This document shows, one piece after another, positions 1,866 to 25,130 of a stretch of DNA of 30,325 nt. The translations under genes and the position numbers were made by a program. Every line of letters begins with the position of its first letter. The first letter of the stretch is position 1. Source of the DNA: a virus; the UHGV virus genome UHGV-0061407; one strand, 5' to 3'. The notes under the pieces were generated by a model. That model was not told the DNA's origin. It was given only the letters and a program-made list of their open reading frames with translations, and made no database searches.

Positions 1866-3160
1866 TCCGGCGTCTCCTCTGATTTAATGCCAAGCCATTC
1901 CCGCAGTGCGTTTTTGGCCGATTCACTGTCGCCGGACTTGCCAAGCTGATCTATCGGCAGCAGGTTAGATTGAACGGTTAGTTGGTCAGCGCCAGGTTTT
2001 GGCTGAAGGTTTTCTTTTTGCCGTGCTTCATTGCGAGTCATCAGACCGTTCTGGGTCATCGTTGAGTAAAAAGCGGCACGGGCGGCGCTGTCGGCACGTA
2101 AGAGACCTTCGATGGAAAACTCTGCGAAGTACTTATTTCTTTCTCCCGGAGCCAGGAGGCTTTTACGAATCGCCTGCTCAATACGGGTAAGCCATGGACG
2201 AAGTGAAAACGTTAAAAAGCCAATCAGCATCTGTTCGACGCCACTTCCCCACATTGTCTGCCCCTGGGCACTGTGTCCAATCAACCCCGGCCATACTCTG
2301 AACCACCGACAAATCTCTTCGATATTGAATGCCCTGGACTGCAGCATCTGGGCGTCTTCCGGGTTGAGGTCAACTGGCTGAAACTTCATTCCCGCTTCAA
2401 GAACCATCATTTTCCCGGTATTCATAGATCCAGAAAATTGTTCAACCATGCTTTCACGTACTTCATTGCGCTGCTCTTTTTTCAGGATTTGATCCATTGA
2501 GAGAACGCCACTGGGCCGCATACCATTTTTAAAAACTTTTGCGCTGGCTTCATCTGTTGCCATTGCCAGACCAAGTGTCTGTCGGGCATAACTGACAGGT
2601 GACAGGCCCATGACACCATTGGTGCTGAACGCACGGATGTGCATGATGTCCCGTTCATTAATGTTTCGGGATGTACCTGAAGGCCAGTCACGGTAGGTAT
2701 AAATAGGATCTCCGCTGCTACTTAAATCAACCTTCATCCTTTCTGGCCTGAGCGGTACAAGCGAGGTAATACGCTTTCCGGTACGGTCGATTTCCGCGTA
2801 AGCATTCCCCCATAAAAGAAGGCTGGCCATGATCATTTCCCAGAACTCCACAGCGGTCATGTCAGCATTCGGCTGATTATGGAGGAGCTCATAAAGCGGG
2901 TGATCATTTGCACTCTGGCGACCATCAGCCGTTTTTTCGTAAAAACCTACAGGCAAAGTCGCGATGGTTTCGGATAACAGCCTTACACATGACCACACTG
3001 CCGATAACTGCAGGGCTTTATCAACCGTAACGGATTTGCCTGCTGCGGACTGCCCACCAGCATAAGCAGCCCAGAATTCACCGTCTGTAAGTGCGATGGG
3101 TACGCCGAGCCACCGGCGAACGGCGCTTTTTATCCGGCCTGGCTTCTTATCTTTATTCAT
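1841..3160 (-). CDS. Portal protein, HK97 family
   Basis: 439 aa ORF immediately downstream of terminase large subunit; size and sequence character of HK97-type portal proteins. Confidence 0.85.
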   Translation of the reverse strand: MNKDKKPGRIKSAVRRWLGVPIALTDGEFWAAYAGGQSAAGKSVTVDKALQLSAVWSCVRLLSETIATLPVGFYEKTADGRQSANDHPLYELLHNQPNADMTAVEFWEMIMASLLLWGNAYAEIDRTGKRITSLVPLRPERMKVDLSSSGDPIYTYRDWPSGTSRNINERDIMHIRAFSTNGVMGLSPVSYARQTLGLAMATDEASAKVFKNGMRPSGVLSMDQILKKEQRNEVRESMVEQFSGSMNTGKMMVLEAGMKFQPVDLNPEDAQMLQSRAFNIEEICRWFRVWPGLIGHSAQGQTMWGSGVEQMLIGFLTFSLRPWLTRIEQAIRKSLLAPGERNKYFAEFSIEGLLRADSAARAAFYSTMTQNGLMTRNEARQKENLQPKPGADQLTVQSNLLPIDQLGKSGDSESAKNALREWLGIKSEETPECTGKTQP

Positions 3161-3166
3161 GGTGAC

Positions 3167-4903
3167 TCACACAATGATGGGATTACTGAAAAAGTCGTCG
3201 ATATCGCCAGAATCATCCTCATAGCCTTCGGAGGCACCGATTGCCATAGCGCCCGCTACAATGCCGTCGATACGCCCGGTACTTTTTTTCTTGGCAAAAA
3301 TTCGGTTTTCTTTCTGATCAGCCTCCGTCACTGCTGAAGCCGCATTCCAGCGAAGACAAGGGTTCGTCCTGATGATAATGACGCTGTCATCAAGCAACTC
3401 TTCAAACAATTCGATGGAGTGAGGCATCCACAGCCCGGAATCTTTCGCTTTGTAATACCCTTGCCCATGAGGGATTAAGGGAACAGAAACAGATGCTTCC
3501 TCAAGCTCCGGCTCAAGATATTTAATGCGATACTGGTCGAAGGCGATGGCCTTGATATCAAACTTCTGAGTCAGATCTGCAATGCGCTGGGCAACAAAGC
3601 CGTATTTCACTGCTTTGCCAGGAGTGGTGTGGATGTGACCATCTCGCTCCCAGGCGTCATAAGGTACCCGGTCCGTTTTGGCCCGTTCCAGTAACGTATC
3701 TTTCGGGGTCCAGAACTCCACCAGCAACTTACGTTGTTTTGGAAAAAACAACGCCAGTGCCGTCAAATCACGCGATCCGGACAGGTCTAAACCGCCATAG
3801 CATTCCTCACCTTCCAGTTCATCTGGATCAAAGCTCTCCTCACAACCCATCCAGACATCACTGCTCATCCACGGATTAGCCGCGTCAACCCACTGACAGA
3901 AGTTAAGACGTCTGACGATGCTCTCTTTCGAAGGCATCCCGCGGGCCTGAGTCACCTGCTCACGAAGATAGCTTTCTTCAAAGGTGTGACCCAGCGAAGG
4001 GTTAGCTTTTTTCCAGCAGGACTCATCCTTGAAAGGATCGTCTCCTTCATCCAGAGAACAAATGAAGGCAAAAAAGCTGTCATCTTCTATCGAACCGGCA
4101 GAAACCTTTCGGCCGTATTCGTGATAGTCATAGCAGACGCTCGTTTTATCGTGCCCACTGTTGGTGATCATGAAAATCAGCGCCTGCCGACGACCTTTGG
4201 TACCGGCACGCATCATTTCAACAACCTGATTGCTTTTATGCTCGTGAACTTCATCAATAAGAGCACAATGCGGTCGCGGGCCGGACTGTCCGTCATCTGA
4301 ACTGATTGGACGAAAGAAGGAACCAGACTGAAGAAAAGCCAGGTTCCATTCCTTCCCGGCACCACCTGATTTCTGAATACGTGCGGAAAGAGCTGGAGAC
4401 TGATCGACCATCGCCACCGCATCACGGAAAAGGACCATTGCCTGGTCTTTCTTCGTGGCAGCGGCATAAACTTCAGCGCGTGCTTCTTTATCCGCAGTGA
4501 GACAGTAAAGCCCTATACCCGCAGACAGAGGGGATTTACCGGATCCCTTCCCGGACTCCACATAGACCATTCGGAACCGGCGAAAACCTCTGGCGTTTTT
4601 CCAGCCAAAAATCGAACCGACGATGAAGCACTGCCATGGCAGCAACACGAAAGGCTCGCCTTCGAAATCACCACCATTGAGCTTCAGAACTTTCGCAAAA
4701 TAGTCAATCGAGCGTTGCGCCGCCTCAACATCCCAGTGCAGACCACGGGCATGACATGACTGCAGATCGTTAAGGTGGCGCTGGCATGAGTTACGTATGT
4801 CAGGACCAGCCAGTTCTTTGCCCGAGGTTACATCCATCGCATATTGGGTTGCAGGATCAACCGAAGAACTTGTCGAGCGTGTCCTCTTCGGGGTCTTCGC
4901 CAT
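3167..4903 (-). CDS. terL: Terminase large subunit
   Basis: 578 aa; Walker A-like ATPase motif (VESGKGSGKS) and C-terminal nuclease-like region; alternative start at internal Met (MDVTSG, about 4837) would remove the 47-nt overlap with terS. Confidence 0.9.
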   Translation of the reverse strand: MAKTPKRTRSTSSSVDPATQYAMDVTSGKELAGPDIRNSCQRHLNDLQSCHARGLHWDVEAAQRSIDYFAKVLKLNGGDFEGEPFVLLPWQCFIVGSIFGWKNARGFRRFRMVYVESGKGSGKSPLSAGIGLYCLTADKEARAEVYAAATKKDQAMVLFRDAVAMVDQSPALSARIQKSGGAGKEWNLAFLQSGSFFRPISSDDGQSGPRPHCALIDEVHEHKSNQVVEMMRAGTKGRRQALIFMITNSGHDKTSVCYDYHEYGRKVSAGSIEDDSFFAFICSLDEGDDPFKDESCWKKANPSLGHTFEESYLREQVTQARGMPSKESIVRRLNFCQWVDAANPWMSSDVWMGCEESFDPDELEGEECYGGLDLSGSRDLTALALFFPKQRKLLVEFWTPKDTLLERAKTDRVPYDAWERDGHIHTTPGKAVKYGFVAQRIADLTQKFDIKAIAFDQYRIKYLEPELEEASVSVPLIPHGQGYYKAKDSGLWMPHSIELFEELLDDSVIIIRTNPCLRWNAASAVTEADQKENRIFAKKKSTGRIDGIVAGAMAIGASEGYEDDSGDIDDFFSNPIIV

Positions 4904-19886: not shown

Positions 19887-20332
19887 AAGTCACCTCCGCA
19901 GTAATTTCCTGCCAGATAGCATGACCCGGCGGAATCATTCATGTTTCTGGCGTTTCGAACAGAAGCATTCTTAAGACGCAGGTACCGCTCTCTTGCTTTA
20001 GCCGTACAGTTGCTGTCACAAAGTTGCTGCCATACCGTCGCCGCACGGCGGTAATAGCGTTTCTCTTCCAGCTTTTTGGCTGTCGCTTCAAGGGCAAGAA
20101 TCTCCCCCGAAAGCCCACCAGGCAGGTACTCTTCAATATCGATGGATCCCGCTACGAAGTAGATAAACCCACCAGTAACTTCAACGCTGGCAAGTTCCCC
20201 GTCGTAGTACAGGCGATGAACAGCGCTCTTCACTGTTACCGGTTTGGTTTCAGGAAATGCCGCAGTGATATCGCGCAGCATTTTGCCTGGATTCTTCTCA
20301 ATAAATTCAAAGATCGACTTGGCTATGTTCAT
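19874..20332 (-). CDS. Hypothetical protein, possibly PerC-family regulator-like
   Basis: 152 aa; segment RYYRRAATVWQQL resembles the RRAA..W signature I associate with PerC-like prophage regulators; weak. Confidence 0.35.
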   Translation of the reverse strand: MNIAKSIFEFIEKNPGKMLRDITAAFPETKPVTVKSAVHRLYYDGELASVEVTGGFIYFVAGSIDIEEYLPGGLSGEILALEATAKKLEEKRYYRRAATVWQQLCDSNCTAKARERYLRLKNASVRNARNMNDSAGSCYLAGNYCGGDLCSD

Positions 20333-21240
20333 CCCCGGAACCCCCGTGGAATAGTGGTTTGTACTGGACTAATTGAATTAACATCCCGCGGTCTGGTTTT
20401 GTCCCACAACTCCCTTGGCGGGCGGCCTTTGGCATCCCAACGGATAGCGCTTTGCAGATATCCCTCGAATTTTTTAGGGCCGAAAAGTGTCTCGGGTCGC
20501 ATGTACTGGTATTGCTCGTCGTTGCCATGCCAGTGCTCATGTTTGACGTCGATTACCAGTTTCAAGTCGCTAACGGTATGACCTTCGCGGAGGCGCGCGC
20601 GAATGTTCTCCAGTGAGGTCTTAGATTTCTGGTAACGGGAACCGCTGACCAGATTCAGGTGTGCCAGAACTTCGATCGCGTTATCGGTAATAACAACTTC
20701 AGGATCCGGCTTATCGTCGGGTTCCGCAGGAGCCCGACAAGAAGGTTTTTTAGATGACGGATCTAATGACGGATCTAATGACGGATCGCCTTCAACCATT
20801 GAGGGGTCCTCCCGCAATATTTGAGGGGGTACAGACCCATTATTTGAGGCATCAGAATTTGACCCCTCAAATTTTGAACCCTCAAATTCTGAGGCATCAA
20901 ATTTTGATTGTTCACGTGGCGTTGCGTAGAAGATTTTTGCTTCAGCTGCTGCACGTTCCAGCATGTCAACATTGAGTTTATAAACGTTCGAATTATTCTT
21001 TCCGCCCACGCGCCGTTCCTGCTTCTTCAGCCAGCCTTTAGCCTGAAGCTTTTTGATAGCGCTGCGGACAGTATTCTCGCTCTTGGCGCCGATCTGTCGC
21101 TGAATAGTGGTTACCGCTGGCCATGACACACCTTCGTCATTACTGAAATCTGCCAGGGGAGCCATGACCGCTATTTCTGAGATTATCAGCCCTTTGAAAG
21201 CGCATGCTTCCCATACGAGGCCGTGTAATTTACTGCTCAT
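20329..21240 (-). CDS. Replication initiator / replisome-organizer-like protein (N-terminal HTH, repetitive linker, conserved phage C-terminal domain)
   Basis: 303 aa; N-terminal HTH-like segment, repetitive linker (KFDASEFEGSKFEGS, PSLDPSLDPS) coinciding with DNA iterons, C-terminal domain of the kind found in phage replication proteins. Confidence 0.65.
   Translation of the reverse strand: MSSKLHGLVWEACAFKGLIISEIAVMAPLADFSNDEGVSWPAVTTIQRQIGAKSENTVRSAIKKLQAKGWLKKQERRVGGKNNSNVYKLNVDMLERAAAEAKIFYATPREQSKFDASEFEGSKFEGSNSDASNNGSVPPQILREDPSMVEGDPSLDPSLDPSSKKPSCRAPAEPDDKPDPEVVITDNAIEVLAHLNLVSGSRYQKSKTSLENIRARLREGHTVSDLKLVIDVKHEHWHGNDEQYQYMRPETLFGPKKFEGYLQSAIRWDAKGRPPRELWDKTRPRDVNSISPVQTTIPRGFRG
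20754..20905. repeat. Iteron cluster inside the replication gene (candidate origin)
   Basis: Tandem 12-bp repeat atgacggatcta x2.8 (20754-20788); repeated atttgagg / cctcaaatt motifs in both orientations and direct 10-bp repeat tgaggcatca (20845-20854, 20890-20899). Confidence 0.5.
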
Positions 21241-21409: not shown

Positions 21410-21581
21410 AGCGCTTTAGCCCTCCGGTTAAAGACCCCCACAACCCCGCGTGCCCGACTGTGGTTACACTCGACCCATTTACCGCATACCATGCGCTCAT
21501 ACCGAAACGACGAAACGCCCGGGATCGGGTACATCCGTAGTTGCGGTAATTGAAGATTTACGATTAAATTGCTCATGCGGA

Positions 21582-22130
21582 TTATTTCTCCATACACAAA
21601 GATTTATTCGCCACGACGCCCGGAGCTGCACACTCGCGGGCGTCACTCTTTTCTGGCAGACAATAAACACGAGAAATCAGGTTGAGAAACGTCATCAACG
21701 TGACCCGGAACTGGTAGGCGATATCATTCAGGCTTTGCCACTCGCCATGTGTAACCACCCCATCATCGATATATTCCCGATAGGCGCTGACCAACTCGCC
21801 AAGCTGACCCACCAGCTCCGCCAGCTTCAAACCAATCTCTTCGTTCTCGTCTTCATGAGCAGCGCCAGATACATGGATTCCGTTGTCGGTTTCACGCGAA
21901 AAAACATCGGCGATGTAGCTAACACCTGCGGCCTTCTGCAAGACCATTGCCCAGCCCATAGGGAATATCTGATCTCCACCAGCACGCAGTCGGTTAAAGA
22001 TCGCGTCCTGGGTGGTATCCAGAATCTCAGCGGCTTCGATATAGCCACCAGGTAACGCGGCTATTGTTTTACGGATCGCCGCCCCCAGCCATGCTGGCTG
22101 CTTTTCGACTTTCCAGTGTTGTTCAATCAT
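21582..22130 (-). CDS. CII-like phage regulatory protein (tentative)
   Basis: 182 aa ORF in the position of cII/early regulators between cro and the replication gene; family assignment from general resemblance only. Confidence 0.4.
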   Translation of the reverse strand: MIEQHWKVEKQPAWLGAAIRKTIAALPGGYIEAAEILDTTQDAIFNRLRAGGDQIFPMGWAMVLQKAAGVSYIADVFSRETDNGIHVSGAAHEDENEEIGLKLAELVGQLGELVSAYREYIDDGVVTHGEWQSLNDIAYQFRVTLMTFLNLISRVYCLPEKSDARECAAPGVVANKSLCMEK

Positions 22131-22196
22131 TGCTCTATACCTCTGTTGGTGTATGATTTCTAAATCAATGACCTATCGAAAAAAACGGGATAAAAA

Positions 22197-22520
22197 ATGC
22201 AGAACCCGCTCGCCAAACTTTCCCTGGATTACTGGTACAAAGTTATGATCCTGATAGGCGCTTTTATTTTTCTTCTCAACGGTGCCGGACTCCTTCCCGC
22301 GTACCCCACAGCAGTCACAGGCTTCATATCCTCTGGACTTTTCTTTTGGGGTCTTGGCGAATGGATGAATCACCCTTATCAGGAGGTGTTGACCTTGGAT
22401 CCCTTTAACCGTCCGACTGGCAAGATATCTGGGCATCCACGGAACGCCTGTCTTATTGGGAATATCTTTGATTTGATTGGATTCGTACTGATCATCACAG
22501 GGCTGATTAAACTCTTCTAA
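22197..22520 (+). CDS. Small membrane protein (3 predicted TM segments), opposite orientation to early-right operon
   Basis: 107 aa with three clean hydrophobic helices; an overlapping minus-strand ORF (22173..22625) has K/E/Q/N-rich composition expected for the antisense shadow of a membrane-protein gene. Confidence 0.4.
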   Translation: MQNPLAKLSLDYWYKVMILIGAFIFLLNGAGLLPAYPTAVTGFISSGLFFWGLGEWMNHPYQEVLTLDPFNRPTGKISGHPRNACLIGNIFDLIGFVLIITGLIKLF

Positions 22521-22669
22521 ATGCCAGCCAATCAGGGTAACCGTTCGGCCATCATGACTATGCTTTACCGAACCGGGTGCAAGATTTTCCAGCACTTGAA
22601 ACATATTCTTAAGCTTGTCCCCCACTGCTTACCCCCTACGTCTGTGGTTAACGCTGCTAAAACCAAATG

Positions 22670-22870
22670 TTATTGTTTGGAATAGATATCTGGTCGGAGA
22701 TCAAACTTCGTGATCGCACCGGATGTGCTTTTTTCCAGTTTTTTTGCCAGATCAAATCCGGCTTTTTTGTAGCCGTTAAAAACTAAACGCAGATAACCGG
22801 GTGTAGAGCCAACGTTTGCAGCTAAATTGCTTTGTTGCTCTTTAGTTAATGAATCCCAGAACTCTTTCAT
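22670..22870 (-). CDS. cro: Cro-like repressor (HTH)
   Basis: 66 aa from ATG 22870 with AGGAGG RBS lying inside operator O1; divergent from cI; HTH-like segment QSNLAANVGSTPGYLRLVFNG. Confidence 0.65.
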   Translation of the reverse strand: MKEFWDSLTKEQQSNLAANVGSTPGYLRLVFNGYKKAGFDLAKKLEKSTSGAITKFDLRPDIYSKQ

Positions 22871-22873
22871 ATA

Positions 22874-22940
22874 TGTACCTCCTGTGTACATATTACACGA
22901 AAGAAATGAACCTTCAAGGCACTTGTACCTAGGAGGTACA
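22874..22940. promoter_or_regulatory. Right operator region: two 17-bp operators tgtacc-N5-(g/t)gtaca between cro and cI
   Basis: O1 22874-22890 tgtacctcctgtgtaca; O2 22924-22940 tgtacctaggaggtaca (perfect palindromic half-sites). Confidence 0.5.
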
Positions 22941-22957
22941 CACGGTTTAATTTCAAT

Positions 22958-23632
22958 ATGAAAACAATCCAGGAAATCAGGCGGTTAAACGCCAGAAAAT
23001 TGCGTGATGGTGTTGGCGGTAATATTTACTTCGCCAATATGATTGATCGCGAGCCGACTCAAACCAGCCGGTTCATGGGAGATGGCGCCACTAAAAACAT
23101 CGGCGATGCAATGGCAAGGCACATTGAAAAGTGTTTTGACTTACCTACTGGGTGGTTAGATCAGGAACATCAAACCACTAATGTTGCTAAAACGCCCGAT
23201 GTCTCTGATACATATAGAAATATCACCATGGTTCCGGTTATATCCTGGGTACAAGCAGGAGCATGGACCGAAGTTGGCTATGCTGAGGTTGATTTGAATA
23301 GCACTGAAAACTATCCATGCCCTGTTCCTTGTGGGCCGATGACTTATATTCTTCGTGTTATTGGCGACTCAATGATCGACGAATATCGGCCCGGTGATAT
23401 GATTTTTGTTGATCCCGAAGTTCCAGCAGTGCATGGAGATGATGTGATCGCCTTAATGCACGATTCTGGTGAGACTACATTTAAACGGTTGATTGAAGAT
23501 GCAGGACAACGCTATCTAAAAGCACTTAACTCAAACTGGCCAGAACCTTACATCAAAATCAATGGTAATTGCTCTATCATTGGTACCGTAATTTTTTCCG
23601 GTAAACCAAGACGATACCGAACGAAAACATAA
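22958..23632 (+). CDS. cI: CI-type prophage repressor with C-terminal S24 (LexA-like) autopeptidase domain
   Basis: 224 aa; N-terminal HTH region, C-terminal S24 motifs (VIGDSM serine, FKRL lysine); divergent from cro. Confidence 0.85.
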   Translation: MKTIQEIRRLNARKLRDGVGGNIYFANMIDREPTQTSRFMGDGATKNIGDAMARHIEKCFDLPTGWLDQEHQTTNVAKTPDVSDTYRNITMVPVISWVQAGAWTEVGYAEVDLNSTENYPCPVPCGPMTYILRVIGDSMIDEYRPGDMIFVDPEVPAVHGDDVIALMHDSGETTFKRLIEDAGQRYLKALNSNWPEPYIKINGNCSIIGTVIFSGKPRRYRTKT

Positions 23633-24049: not shown

Positions 24050-25130
24050 TGTCTTCGGGAGGGGTTACGGAGCTGGATTGACCACCAGCAACAGAAACTC
24101 ACCCGACATACAGCAGCCGTTTAGCCCACGGCGTCGGGGGTCCAGTAGACCTGGATTAATACTGTAGGGGTTGTGCCGGTTGGTCGCCGGCGCCCCGCCC
24201 GAAGATTCCTGATCGAACATGGCGAAAGCCGACAGCGTTGAAGGCGATTTTCTCGGTTTGCGCGCTAAACAATAGCGGGGGTGAAATCGGGGCGGAGAAG
24301 CAGAATCCGCGATGTCGGGACTTGATACTTCCGGCCATACCAACAAGCCGAATGATCGCGTAACGATCCTTTGCATCTGCCCCGGCGAGGTGGCGCCGCC
24401 GGACCGGGGTAGATGAATCGTACACAACATGAAAGCGCATTCCATCTTCATCCGTCGTGGGGACTGGTTTGTAACTGAAGGAGTGCGCTTCCAGTTGTGA
24501 ACGGCAATATTCACGACCGTTGTATGGCACATGCAGCGTTAGCAGCCCGGATGGTTCCCTTGAAGTTCCATGCGCTATCCGGACAACTGGAATGTGCAAG
24601 CTAAGTGTTTCAGGCACGACGTGCGCCCCACCAGCGCGGCGAAAAGGTGTGACCCCGGGAAGAGTCCGGGAAACAACAGGTAAGAGCACTCCCGCCACAC
24701 GAGGCTGAAACCCAAGCGCCATGTGGATGCGCCGAAAAGCTACAACGGGGCGTTGGTAGAAGATCGGAGTGCTCTTTCCGTTGTGGTAATTGCGGCTATG
24801 CGCACGTGACGAGCCAAACCCGTTCAATGAATGCGTTTCCGGGAAGTGTACGTCGCCGGTTATGGCTTAACCCGGCAGGTGGAGGCACCACCGCCACAAC
24901 CTAGTTAACTGTGCTGTGTGTAGTCTTGGCGGTTATCCAGTTTTCCACTATCCAAAGGAGGAAGAGGATAACGTTCTGATGGATAACCGCCCTTTTTACA
25001 CAATACACAAGAGCATCACCGGGCGACGGGCTCATTACCCAATCCACCCGGGCGGCGTCCTAACCGCAGGTGCTCTTCTGTGTTGTGTACGGAGAAATTC
25101 CCGGCGGTGGCAGCCGCCTTTCGAGAGGGT
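24050..25130. other. GC-rich, ORF-poor island with long-range perfect inverted repeats (candidate structured RNA or decayed gene)
   Basis: About 62-65% GC on sampled 60-nt lines versus about 45-52% in flanks; no convincing ORF on the operon strand; 10-bp and 12-bp perfect inverted repeats (see findings). Confidence 0.4.

Follow-up and report, generated by a model that had tools for sequence, protein, structure and literature searches.

Introduction

Long genes that overlap antisense are a disputed subject in bacteria and phages, and most of those proposed are based on expression data from a single strain. In temperate phages, prophage membrane morons such as SieB (lambda and P22), Sim, Cor and others are known to act in superinfection exclusion. 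It is also well established that Rho-dependent termination acts on untranslated or antisense RNA, which is the basis of classical nonsense polarity.

In the Pseudomonas phage Fc02, olg1 encodes a 7.9-kDa exclusion protein on the repressor strand. Gene 10, located after ner on the lytic strand, overlaps olg1 antisense, and olg1 is carried upstream of the repressor on the distal pC1 transcript (PMC9936078). Antisense overlapping genes have also been proposed in Escherichia coli O157:H7 and Pseudomonas aeruginosa and are reported to rest mainly on Ribo-seq and on selection tests in narrow taxa (PMC9927249, PMC8850804). Finally, the dicBF operon of the E. coli Qin prophage has the order ydfA-ydfB-ydfC-dicF-dicB-ydfD, and in K-12 a long untranslated stretch with dicF separates its promoter-proximal small genes from dicB (PMC5069750).

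Here we analysed a stretch of 30,325 nucleotides from the virus genome UHGV-0061407 (referred to as the window). Its immunity region resembles Fc02 in layout, since a small gene on the repressor strand lies upstream of the repressor and antisense to the ORF that follows a cro/ner-like gene, and both ORFs are taken as real. Fc02 differs in being a transposable B3-like phage, with olg1 described as soluble and gene 10 as insoluble. Moreover, the Fc02 paper provides expression and exclusion data and contains no evolutionary test, whereas the evidence presented here is evolutionary and points to one frame that is constrained in sequence and another that is only kept open. The window also shares with the O157:H7 and P. 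aeruginosa cases a long ORF that lies antisense in a recognised gene and is argued to be translated; unlike in those cases, the embedded gene is the older of the pair and is widespread, and the enclosing frame avoids stops over 21 lineages without amino-acid constraint. Unlike the Qin arrangement, the window copy is located in the cro-cII interval and has a different N-terminal module.

Results

Layout of the locus

Two long overlapping ORFs are present in the ORF list, one at 22197-22520 on the plus strand (107 aa, ATG start) and one at 22173-22625 on the minus strand (150 aa, GTG start), exactly at the coordinates given in the initial annotation of this DNA. The 453-nt minus ORF encloses the entire 324-nt plus ORF. 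Their codons are aligned, so that position 1 of the plus frame coincides with position 3 of the minus frame and the middle positions coincide with each other. The pair was originally placed between cro and a CII-like gene, and both neighbours were found where expected. The features of the region are as follows.

20329-21240, minus strand: replication-type gene with HTH_36 and Phg_2220_C
21582-22130, minus strand: CII-like/YmfL-family regulator gene (phrog_101, 2e-40; NF041471, 118 bits with a cut-off of 90)
22130-22157, plus strand: weak candidate sigma-70 promoter of the membrane gene (TTGCTC, 16 nt, TATGAT), picked by eye and hypothetical
22173-22625, minus strand: early-operon ORF "X-long" (150 aa, GTG start), composed of the small gene X and a stop-free read-through antisense to the membrane gene
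22173-22520, minus strand: stop-free tail of X, antisense to the membrane gene, with seven further codons and the TAG stop (22173-22175)
22197-22520, plus strand: predicted gene of a 107-aa inner-membrane protein with three transmembrane helices and a beta hairpin (homologues, purifying selection, AlphaFold2 model)
22521-22625, minus strand: N-terminal module of X, 35 codons, outside the plus ORF (minus-frame coding signature, alignments, stand-alone homologues)
22626-22669, minus strand: leader from the cro-like stop to the X start, with the Shine-Dalgarno (SD) sequence GGGGG at 22632-22636 and a motif at 22639-22652 (TAACYACMRRAG)
22670-22891, minus strand: Cro-like HTH gene of the YdaS family, first gene of the early-right operon
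22958-23632, plus strand: S24 (LexA/CI-type) repressor gene, which shares its strand with the membrane gene and follows it after 437 nt

The minus ORF matches the spacing of the operon: the cro stop is followed by 44 nt and then X, and the X stop by 42 nt and then the start of the YmfL-like gene, which is preceded by the SD sequence AGAGG. No credible RNA family was found by Rfam in 21500-23100, and the window contains no tRNA. Other overlapping ORFs were also observed. A 201-aa plus-strand ORF (21450-22055) runs codon-aligned antisense across most of the YmfL-like gene, and just past the repressor region, at 24065-24827, two long minus-strand ORFs of 155 and 223 aa overlap, with translations that look odd and of low complexity.

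The membrane protein gene on the plus strand

Megablast of the 600-bp region against phage genomes gave no match, and the homologues were obtained by protein-level searches. By tblastn against phage genomes, the plus-strand protein matched mEp390 (46% identity, 4e-22), HannyBb (43%) and gp33 of Burkholderia phage Bcep176 (38%), while the minus-strand product matched only mEp390, with 27% identity. The large protein collections contained 11 close clusters for the plus-strand protein, and a profile search with it yielded 419 representatives at 50% identity, nearly all of which are 100-110 aa long. The identity of these homologues goes down to about 32%, and they belong to Proteobacteria, Campylobacterota, Desulfobacterota and Nitrospirota. 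In addition, locus searches provided 111 loci carrying the membrane gene, from Enterobacterales phages, Burkholderiales, Arcobacter, Desulfobacterota, Nitrospirales and others. At least 180 homologues are present in IMG/VR.

Eight residues are invariant in the family (W13, G54, E55, W56, N58, H59, P60 and G88), and two motifs are conserved, DYWYK near the N-terminus and G-x-GEW-x-NHP after the second transmembrane helix. Three hydrophobic helices are seen in the hydropathy profile. The AlphaFold2 model (pLDDT 80) consists of an amphipathic helix (residues 4-11), TM1 (13-29), TM2 (38-58), a beta hairpin (61-79) and TM3 (86-106), and together with the hydropathy it agrees with the three transmembrane helices first noticed in the sequence. 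The model had no significant fold match in BFVD or PDB. Pfam, NCBIfam and PADLOC contain no family for either product and PHROGs gave no match for the plus-strand protein; in none of these four databases did it show homology to a known exclusion or defence family.

In ten diverged loci, divergence within the overlap was 0.35, 0.235 and 0.61 at plus codon positions 1, 2 and 3, respectively. Among the variable codons within clusters, 98 were synonymous in the plus frame and non-synonymous in the minus frame, and 11 were the reverse. Both the divergence pattern and the 98 versus 11 split indicate purifying selection in the plus frame, and the membrane gene appears to be under clear purifying selection on its amino acids. 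With its homologues, this strongly argues that the plus ORF is a genuine gene, whose product is a small membrane protein with three TM helices and belongs to an uncharacterised but widespread family, in keeping with the earlier proposal of a real membrane gene lying against the early-right operon.

The reverse assignment, in which the minus ORF is the sole gene and the plus ORF its shadow, would fit the direction and spacing of the operon, the choice of the minus ORF by the annotators of mEp390 and HannyBb, and the existence of the PHROGs family phrog_35040. However, the substitution pattern in the overlap is that of plus-strand coding, the plus-strand protein has hundreds of homologues, many of them with a closed antisense frame, and in mEp390 the minus-frame protein is the far less similar of the two. 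We regard the probability of this assignment as negligible.

Some distant homologues were inspected in their own surroundings. The chromosome of Arcobacter sp. Pygsuia-1 carries a distant membrane-gene homologue in three identical copies at three sites (L017, L018 and L019), which suggests a multi-copy mobile element as the carrier. In Herbaspirillum autotrophicum (L022), the distant homologue (3001-3309) precedes an S24-peptidase repressor-like gene (3702-4667) by about 390 nt on the same strand; this gene order mirrors that of the window, and the antisense frame there has two stops. In general, the neighbours of the distant homologues are heterogeneous (HerA-like ATPase, AAA_14/DUF4143, DUF5677, S24 repressor) and gave no functional lead.

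Gene X, the 5' part of the minus ORF

The minus ORF in all appearance starts as a genuine small early gene, X, which directly follows cro and has a strong SD sequence and a GTG start. In the 105 nt outside the plus ORF (22521-22625), divergence was 0.51, 0.35 and 0.68 at minus codon positions 1, 2 and 3, and the alignments of this module contain the conserved motif L-x4-PGSV-x8-V-T-L-I-G-W. The SD sequence before X is strong and conserved (AGGGGGTAAGCA-GTG in the window), and an SD-like AGGGGTAGG was found again in most loci together with the leader motif upstream of it. This motif, TAAC(C/T)AC(A/C)RRAG, is located between the cro-like stop and the SD sequence of X (22639-22652, minus strand, in the window). 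It occurs at the equivalent position in L001, L004, L006, L041, L046 and L050, and the cro genes differ among the loci. It may serve as a regulatory site in RNA or DNA, such as a nut-like or operator-like one.

A profile search with the X module recovered stand-alone proteins of 46-86 aa. Their loci have the order repressor, cro, X and CII-like gene (Phage_CP76/YmfL), and the membrane gene is absent from them or present as a remnant, either with an internal deletion (L115) or as C-terminal fragments with stops (L119, L120 and L125). Protein P0015 was grouped with these four loci, in which X is kept and the membrane gene is reduced to remnants. The occurrence of such remnants in phages carrying X indicates repeated loss of the membrane gene. 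The gap from the end of X to the next start is -1 to +59 nt in the short forms and mostly -23 to +42 nt in the long forms, and the X frame ends beside the next gene even where the membrane gene is a remnant.

AlphaFold2 predicted a helix and three short strands for the X module (pLDDT 51-65). In other loci, the same open tail continues in frame from a second type of N-terminus, which has a CPxCG motif, and in some of these loci the plus-strand proteins nest among those of the first type. The minus-strand product is hydrophilic, and its commonest residues are K, G, E, V, R, F, Q and P. In PHROGs, the minus ORF of the window and the long minus ORFs of L050 and L046 matched only phrog_35040, a family of unknown function, and there was no match for the stand-alone X proteins or the mEp390 minus ORF. 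Pfam gave nothing significant for stand-alone X or for the long minus ORFs of related loci (one weak match, E 0.035).

Stop avoidance in the antisense frame

The codon-aligned antisense frame is stop-free in 48 of the 68 distinct plus-strand coding sequences, and the remaining 20 have 1-17 stops. The 48 stop-free sequences make up 21 clusters below 80% identity. From the codon usage of the genes flanking each locus, 3-5 stops are expected per sequence, and log10 P(0) summed over the cluster representatives is about -33. As an empirical control, the flanking ORFs contain on average 4.2 TTA, CTA or TCA codons per 107 codons; these codons are missing from 8 of the 108 control windows, some of the 8 being mis-picked shadows.

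The avoidance is clearest in 15 low-GC representatives, where TTA and CTA account for none of 210 Leu codons and TCA for none of 60 Ser codons. The same sequences freely use ATA (15/167), AGA and AGG (21 of 45 Arg codons), GGA (25%), ACA (35%) and GCA (28%). All 15 are open, and P(0) is about 0.001-0.05 for 14 of them (L040, 0.045; L046, 0.052). For the high-GC members L020, L024 and L034, P(0) is 0.14-0.59 and openness by chance is plausible.

In a neighbour-joining tree, the stop-free state forms one clade that also includes L009. In L009 the gene is co-directional with a HerA-like ATPase gene, without antisense embedding, and its antisense frame has 10 stops. Distant homologues have 1-17 antisense stops, about as many as expected. 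Apart from one recent allele (L121/L122), stops appear only outside the antisense-embedded context, that is, in L009 and the distant homologues. Moreover, the open frame passes both ends of the plus ORF and is joined in frame to a real start. These comparisons argue firmly that selection keeps the X frame open through the membrane gene wherever the latter sits antisense in the early operon.

General codon optimisation was considered as a cause of the codon bias and ruled out, as only TTA, CTA and TCA are avoided and other A-ending or rare codons are used normally. Chance openness was ruled out by the P(0) values and the control windows.

The minus ORF had initially been described as the expected antisense shadow of a membrane gene, a view in which its openness is passive and due to chance or codon bias. 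Hydrophobic genes do often lack stops in their codon-aligned antisense frames, and the three high-GC members would fit this description. It is nevertheless very improbable: all the low-GC representatives are open in spite of their low P(0) while few control windows are, the avoidance is confined to three codons, and L009 and the distant homologues have the stops expected of them. Besides, the 5' 105 nt of the minus ORF code independently behind a conserved SD sequence, and X exists as a stand-alone gene elsewhere. We also considered that the avoidance could stem not from translation of the minus strand but from a constraint on the plus-strand mRNA or on the DNA, such as tRNA supply, a structural signal or a binding signal, since all three avoided codons end in A. 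Nothing specific speaks for such a constraint, and we give it equally little credence, because other A-ending and rare codons are in free use, the avoided set is the exact reverse complement of the three stop codons, and the open frame exceeds the plus ORF at both ends to join a real start in frame.

The recent allele occurs in L121 and L122, which share their membrane protein with L040 at 100% identity. One codon has changed from TCT to TCA; this has no effect on the membrane protein but gives X a TGA at codon 66. The existence of this allele shows that nonsense mutations arise, yet they are seen in no older lineage; its presence in at least three samples shows that the open frame is not strictly essential. 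The phage of L121/L122 (1501-1698) is otherwise near-identical to that of L040, and X follows a Phage_CII-family gene there and not cro directly.

The tail of X

Codon identity at conserved plus-strand residues was compared with a different-column control, and was 0.39 versus 0.33 in the open group and 0.338 versus 0.283 in the closed group. The excess is equal in the two groups, so the minus frame adds no detectable constraint on plus-strand synonymous sites. Residues 37-150 of the minus-strand product have an AlphaFold2 pLDDT below 50, and the tail is predicted to be disordered. The two frames therefore seem to differ in kind within the overlap: the plus frame would be selected on its amino acids, and the minus frame against stops without amino-acid selection. 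Homologues conserving the minus-strand protein, named at the outset as what would speak against a mere shadow, were accordingly found for its N-terminal 35-40 residues only; for the tail, the sequence is not conserved. All this argues that selection acts on the openness of the X frame and not on the amino-acid sequence of the tail. In addition, the open frame occurs with at least two N-terminal modules and in two operon contexts (cro-X-cII-like and ydfA-ydfB-...-dicF-dicB), which points to translation through the region, and not to one particular protein, as the selected property.

The main rival explanation is that the stop-free tail is a functional polypeptide, either a disordered extension needed by X or an "antisense peptide" that binds and neutralises the membrane protein in lytic growth. 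The frame has been held open over 21 lineages, as such a function would require, and stop avoidance by itself cannot separate a need for translation from a need for a long hydrophilic tail of any sequence. As the frames are codon-aligned, the hydropathy of the two products is mirrored, and the comparable locus of Fc02 yields active proteins from both strands (PMC9936078). On the other hand, amino-acid constraint beyond that imposed by the plus-strand gene is lacking, related phages have X as a protein of 46-86 aa without the tail, the same tail is joined to unrelated N-terminal modules, and AlphaFold2 finds no structure in it. We consider a functional tail unlikely, though clearly ahead of the other alternatives.

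The Qin-like variant and its annotation

Relatives of the HannyBb type sit in a Qin-like dicBF operon. In this variant, a 205-aa "long YdfB" has a 106-aa membrane-protein gene antisense inside it (L126:1506-2123 in E. coli CFSAN061769, and L002:2965-3582). The first 34 residues of the 205-aa ORF are identical to K-12 YdfB, after which the frame continues through the antisense of the membrane gene; its N-terminus matches phrog_2061. K-12 has a short ydfB (encoding a 42-aa YdfB) and ydfC, without the membrane gene, and its counterpart interval is L127:2166-2294. No N-terminal similarity to K-12 YdfB was found for X of the window, which is of the PGSV...TLIGW type. At least 80% of a 661-nt segment of the Qin-like variant is present in at least 797 of 5426 complete E. 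coli genomes (about 15%).

The annotation of these loci is inconsistent. In one example inspected, PGAP annotated neither ORF and flagged ydfB as partial (pseudogene); elsewhere it annotates the plus-strand gene and not X, and the phage annotators of mEp390 and HannyBb chose the minus ORF. In near-identical loci, the plus ORF was called in some genomes (P0001, Salmonella enterica) and the minus ORF in others (P0012, Klebsiella oxytoca). As a result, the databases hold both "hypothetical proteins" for the same DNA.

Discussion

A nested gene pair probably kept translatable

The best overall explanation, which we consider probable, is that the immunity region of a lambdoid prophage contains two genes nested antisense, with the X frame held open by a need for translation. 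The membrane gene, gene X, the continuity of the frame and the selection on its openness rest on comparative sequence analysis, from which we infer the reason for translation. The locus has strong comparative support and can be seen as a variant of an arrangement, antisense overlap, of which Fc02 and the proposed bacterial overlapping genes are known examples.

The X frame runs stop-free through the whole membrane gene and ends close to where the following gene starts. In the proposed mechanism, ribosomes would stay on the early-operon mRNA over about 350 nt of otherwise untranslated antisense RNA. Their continued translation would shield this RNA from Rho-dependent termination (nonsense polarity) and from RNase attack, and the CII-like and replication genes would go on receiving ribosomes. 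The cost is limited to three codons, TTA, CTA and TCA, which the membrane gene has to avoid. Nonsense polarity offers a rationale for translating operon mRNA over a stretch that is unable to hold a conventional gene; to our knowledge, a role of polarity in keeping a stop-free frame over an antisense gene has not been described.

Several points speak against this mechanism or limit it. The C>G skew typical of rut sites was not seen in the minus-strand RNA over the overlap, where C/G is 0.72-1.18, a proxy that is uninformative here. If the variant dicBF operon also contains the untranslated dicF stretch of K-12, reaching the next gene cannot be the full explanation there. Likewise, N/nut-type antitermination, if used by these phages, would make Rho avoidance unnecessary.

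Expression and possible role of the membrane gene

A consensus scan detected neither a promoter nor a terminator on the plus strand around the membrane gene; TTGCTC-N16-TATGAT, the candidate picked by eye, scores below the threshold of the promoter scan. No conserved promoter was seen upstream of the gene among relatives, whose upstream regions are too divergent, and no intrinsic terminator was predicted on the plus strand between the membrane gene and the S24 repressor gene. A transcript starting near 22130-22196 would pass through the membrane gene, continue antisense to X and cro, and reach the repressor gene. Such a transcript would resemble the lambda PRE transcript and the distal pC1 transcript of Fc02. 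The membrane gene is most likely expressed from the repressor strand, in the lysogen or during the establishment of lysogeny.

By analogy, superinfection exclusion is a plausible role for the membrane protein. It shares with SieB, Sim and Cor that it is a small membrane protein from the early region of a temperate phage, but differs from them in having no homology to catalogued families and, according to the scan, no promoter or terminator of its own.

The same 324 bp may be translated on both strands at different stages of the life cycle, giving a membrane protein in lysogeny or its establishment and an early lytic protein with a "translated spacer" as its tail, which selection against stops alone would maintain. 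We would give this about an even chance. In a bolder version, the hydropathically complementary tail would bind and inactivate the membrane protein.

Significance

The evolutionary signature of the locus is unusual, in that stops appear to be avoided while the sequence is left unconstrained. The locus is widespread among enterobacterial prophages, and its annotation there is inconsistent. The comparative depth consists of 21 diverged lineages and of natural controls, namely a member of the clade that is not embedded antisense, derivatives with deletions and a nonsense allele of recent origin. If both strands are translated in this way, the pair would be among the best-supported natural antisense overlapping gene pairs in bacteria, and operon polarity would influence which codons are used by a gene on the other strand. 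The suggested rule is that an operon tolerates a gene inserted antisense if a translatable frame is kept across it.

There are also consequences for annotation and for E. coli itself. Pipelines call the plus-strand gene, the minus ORF or neither, which is a systematic annotation problem. The results define a large family of small membrane proteins, frequently carried by mobile elements, that is missing from Pfam, PHROGs, NCBIfam and PADLOC. Moreover, they would add a previously unrecognised membrane-protein gene and a long form of YdfB to the well-studied dicBF operon of many E. coli strains.
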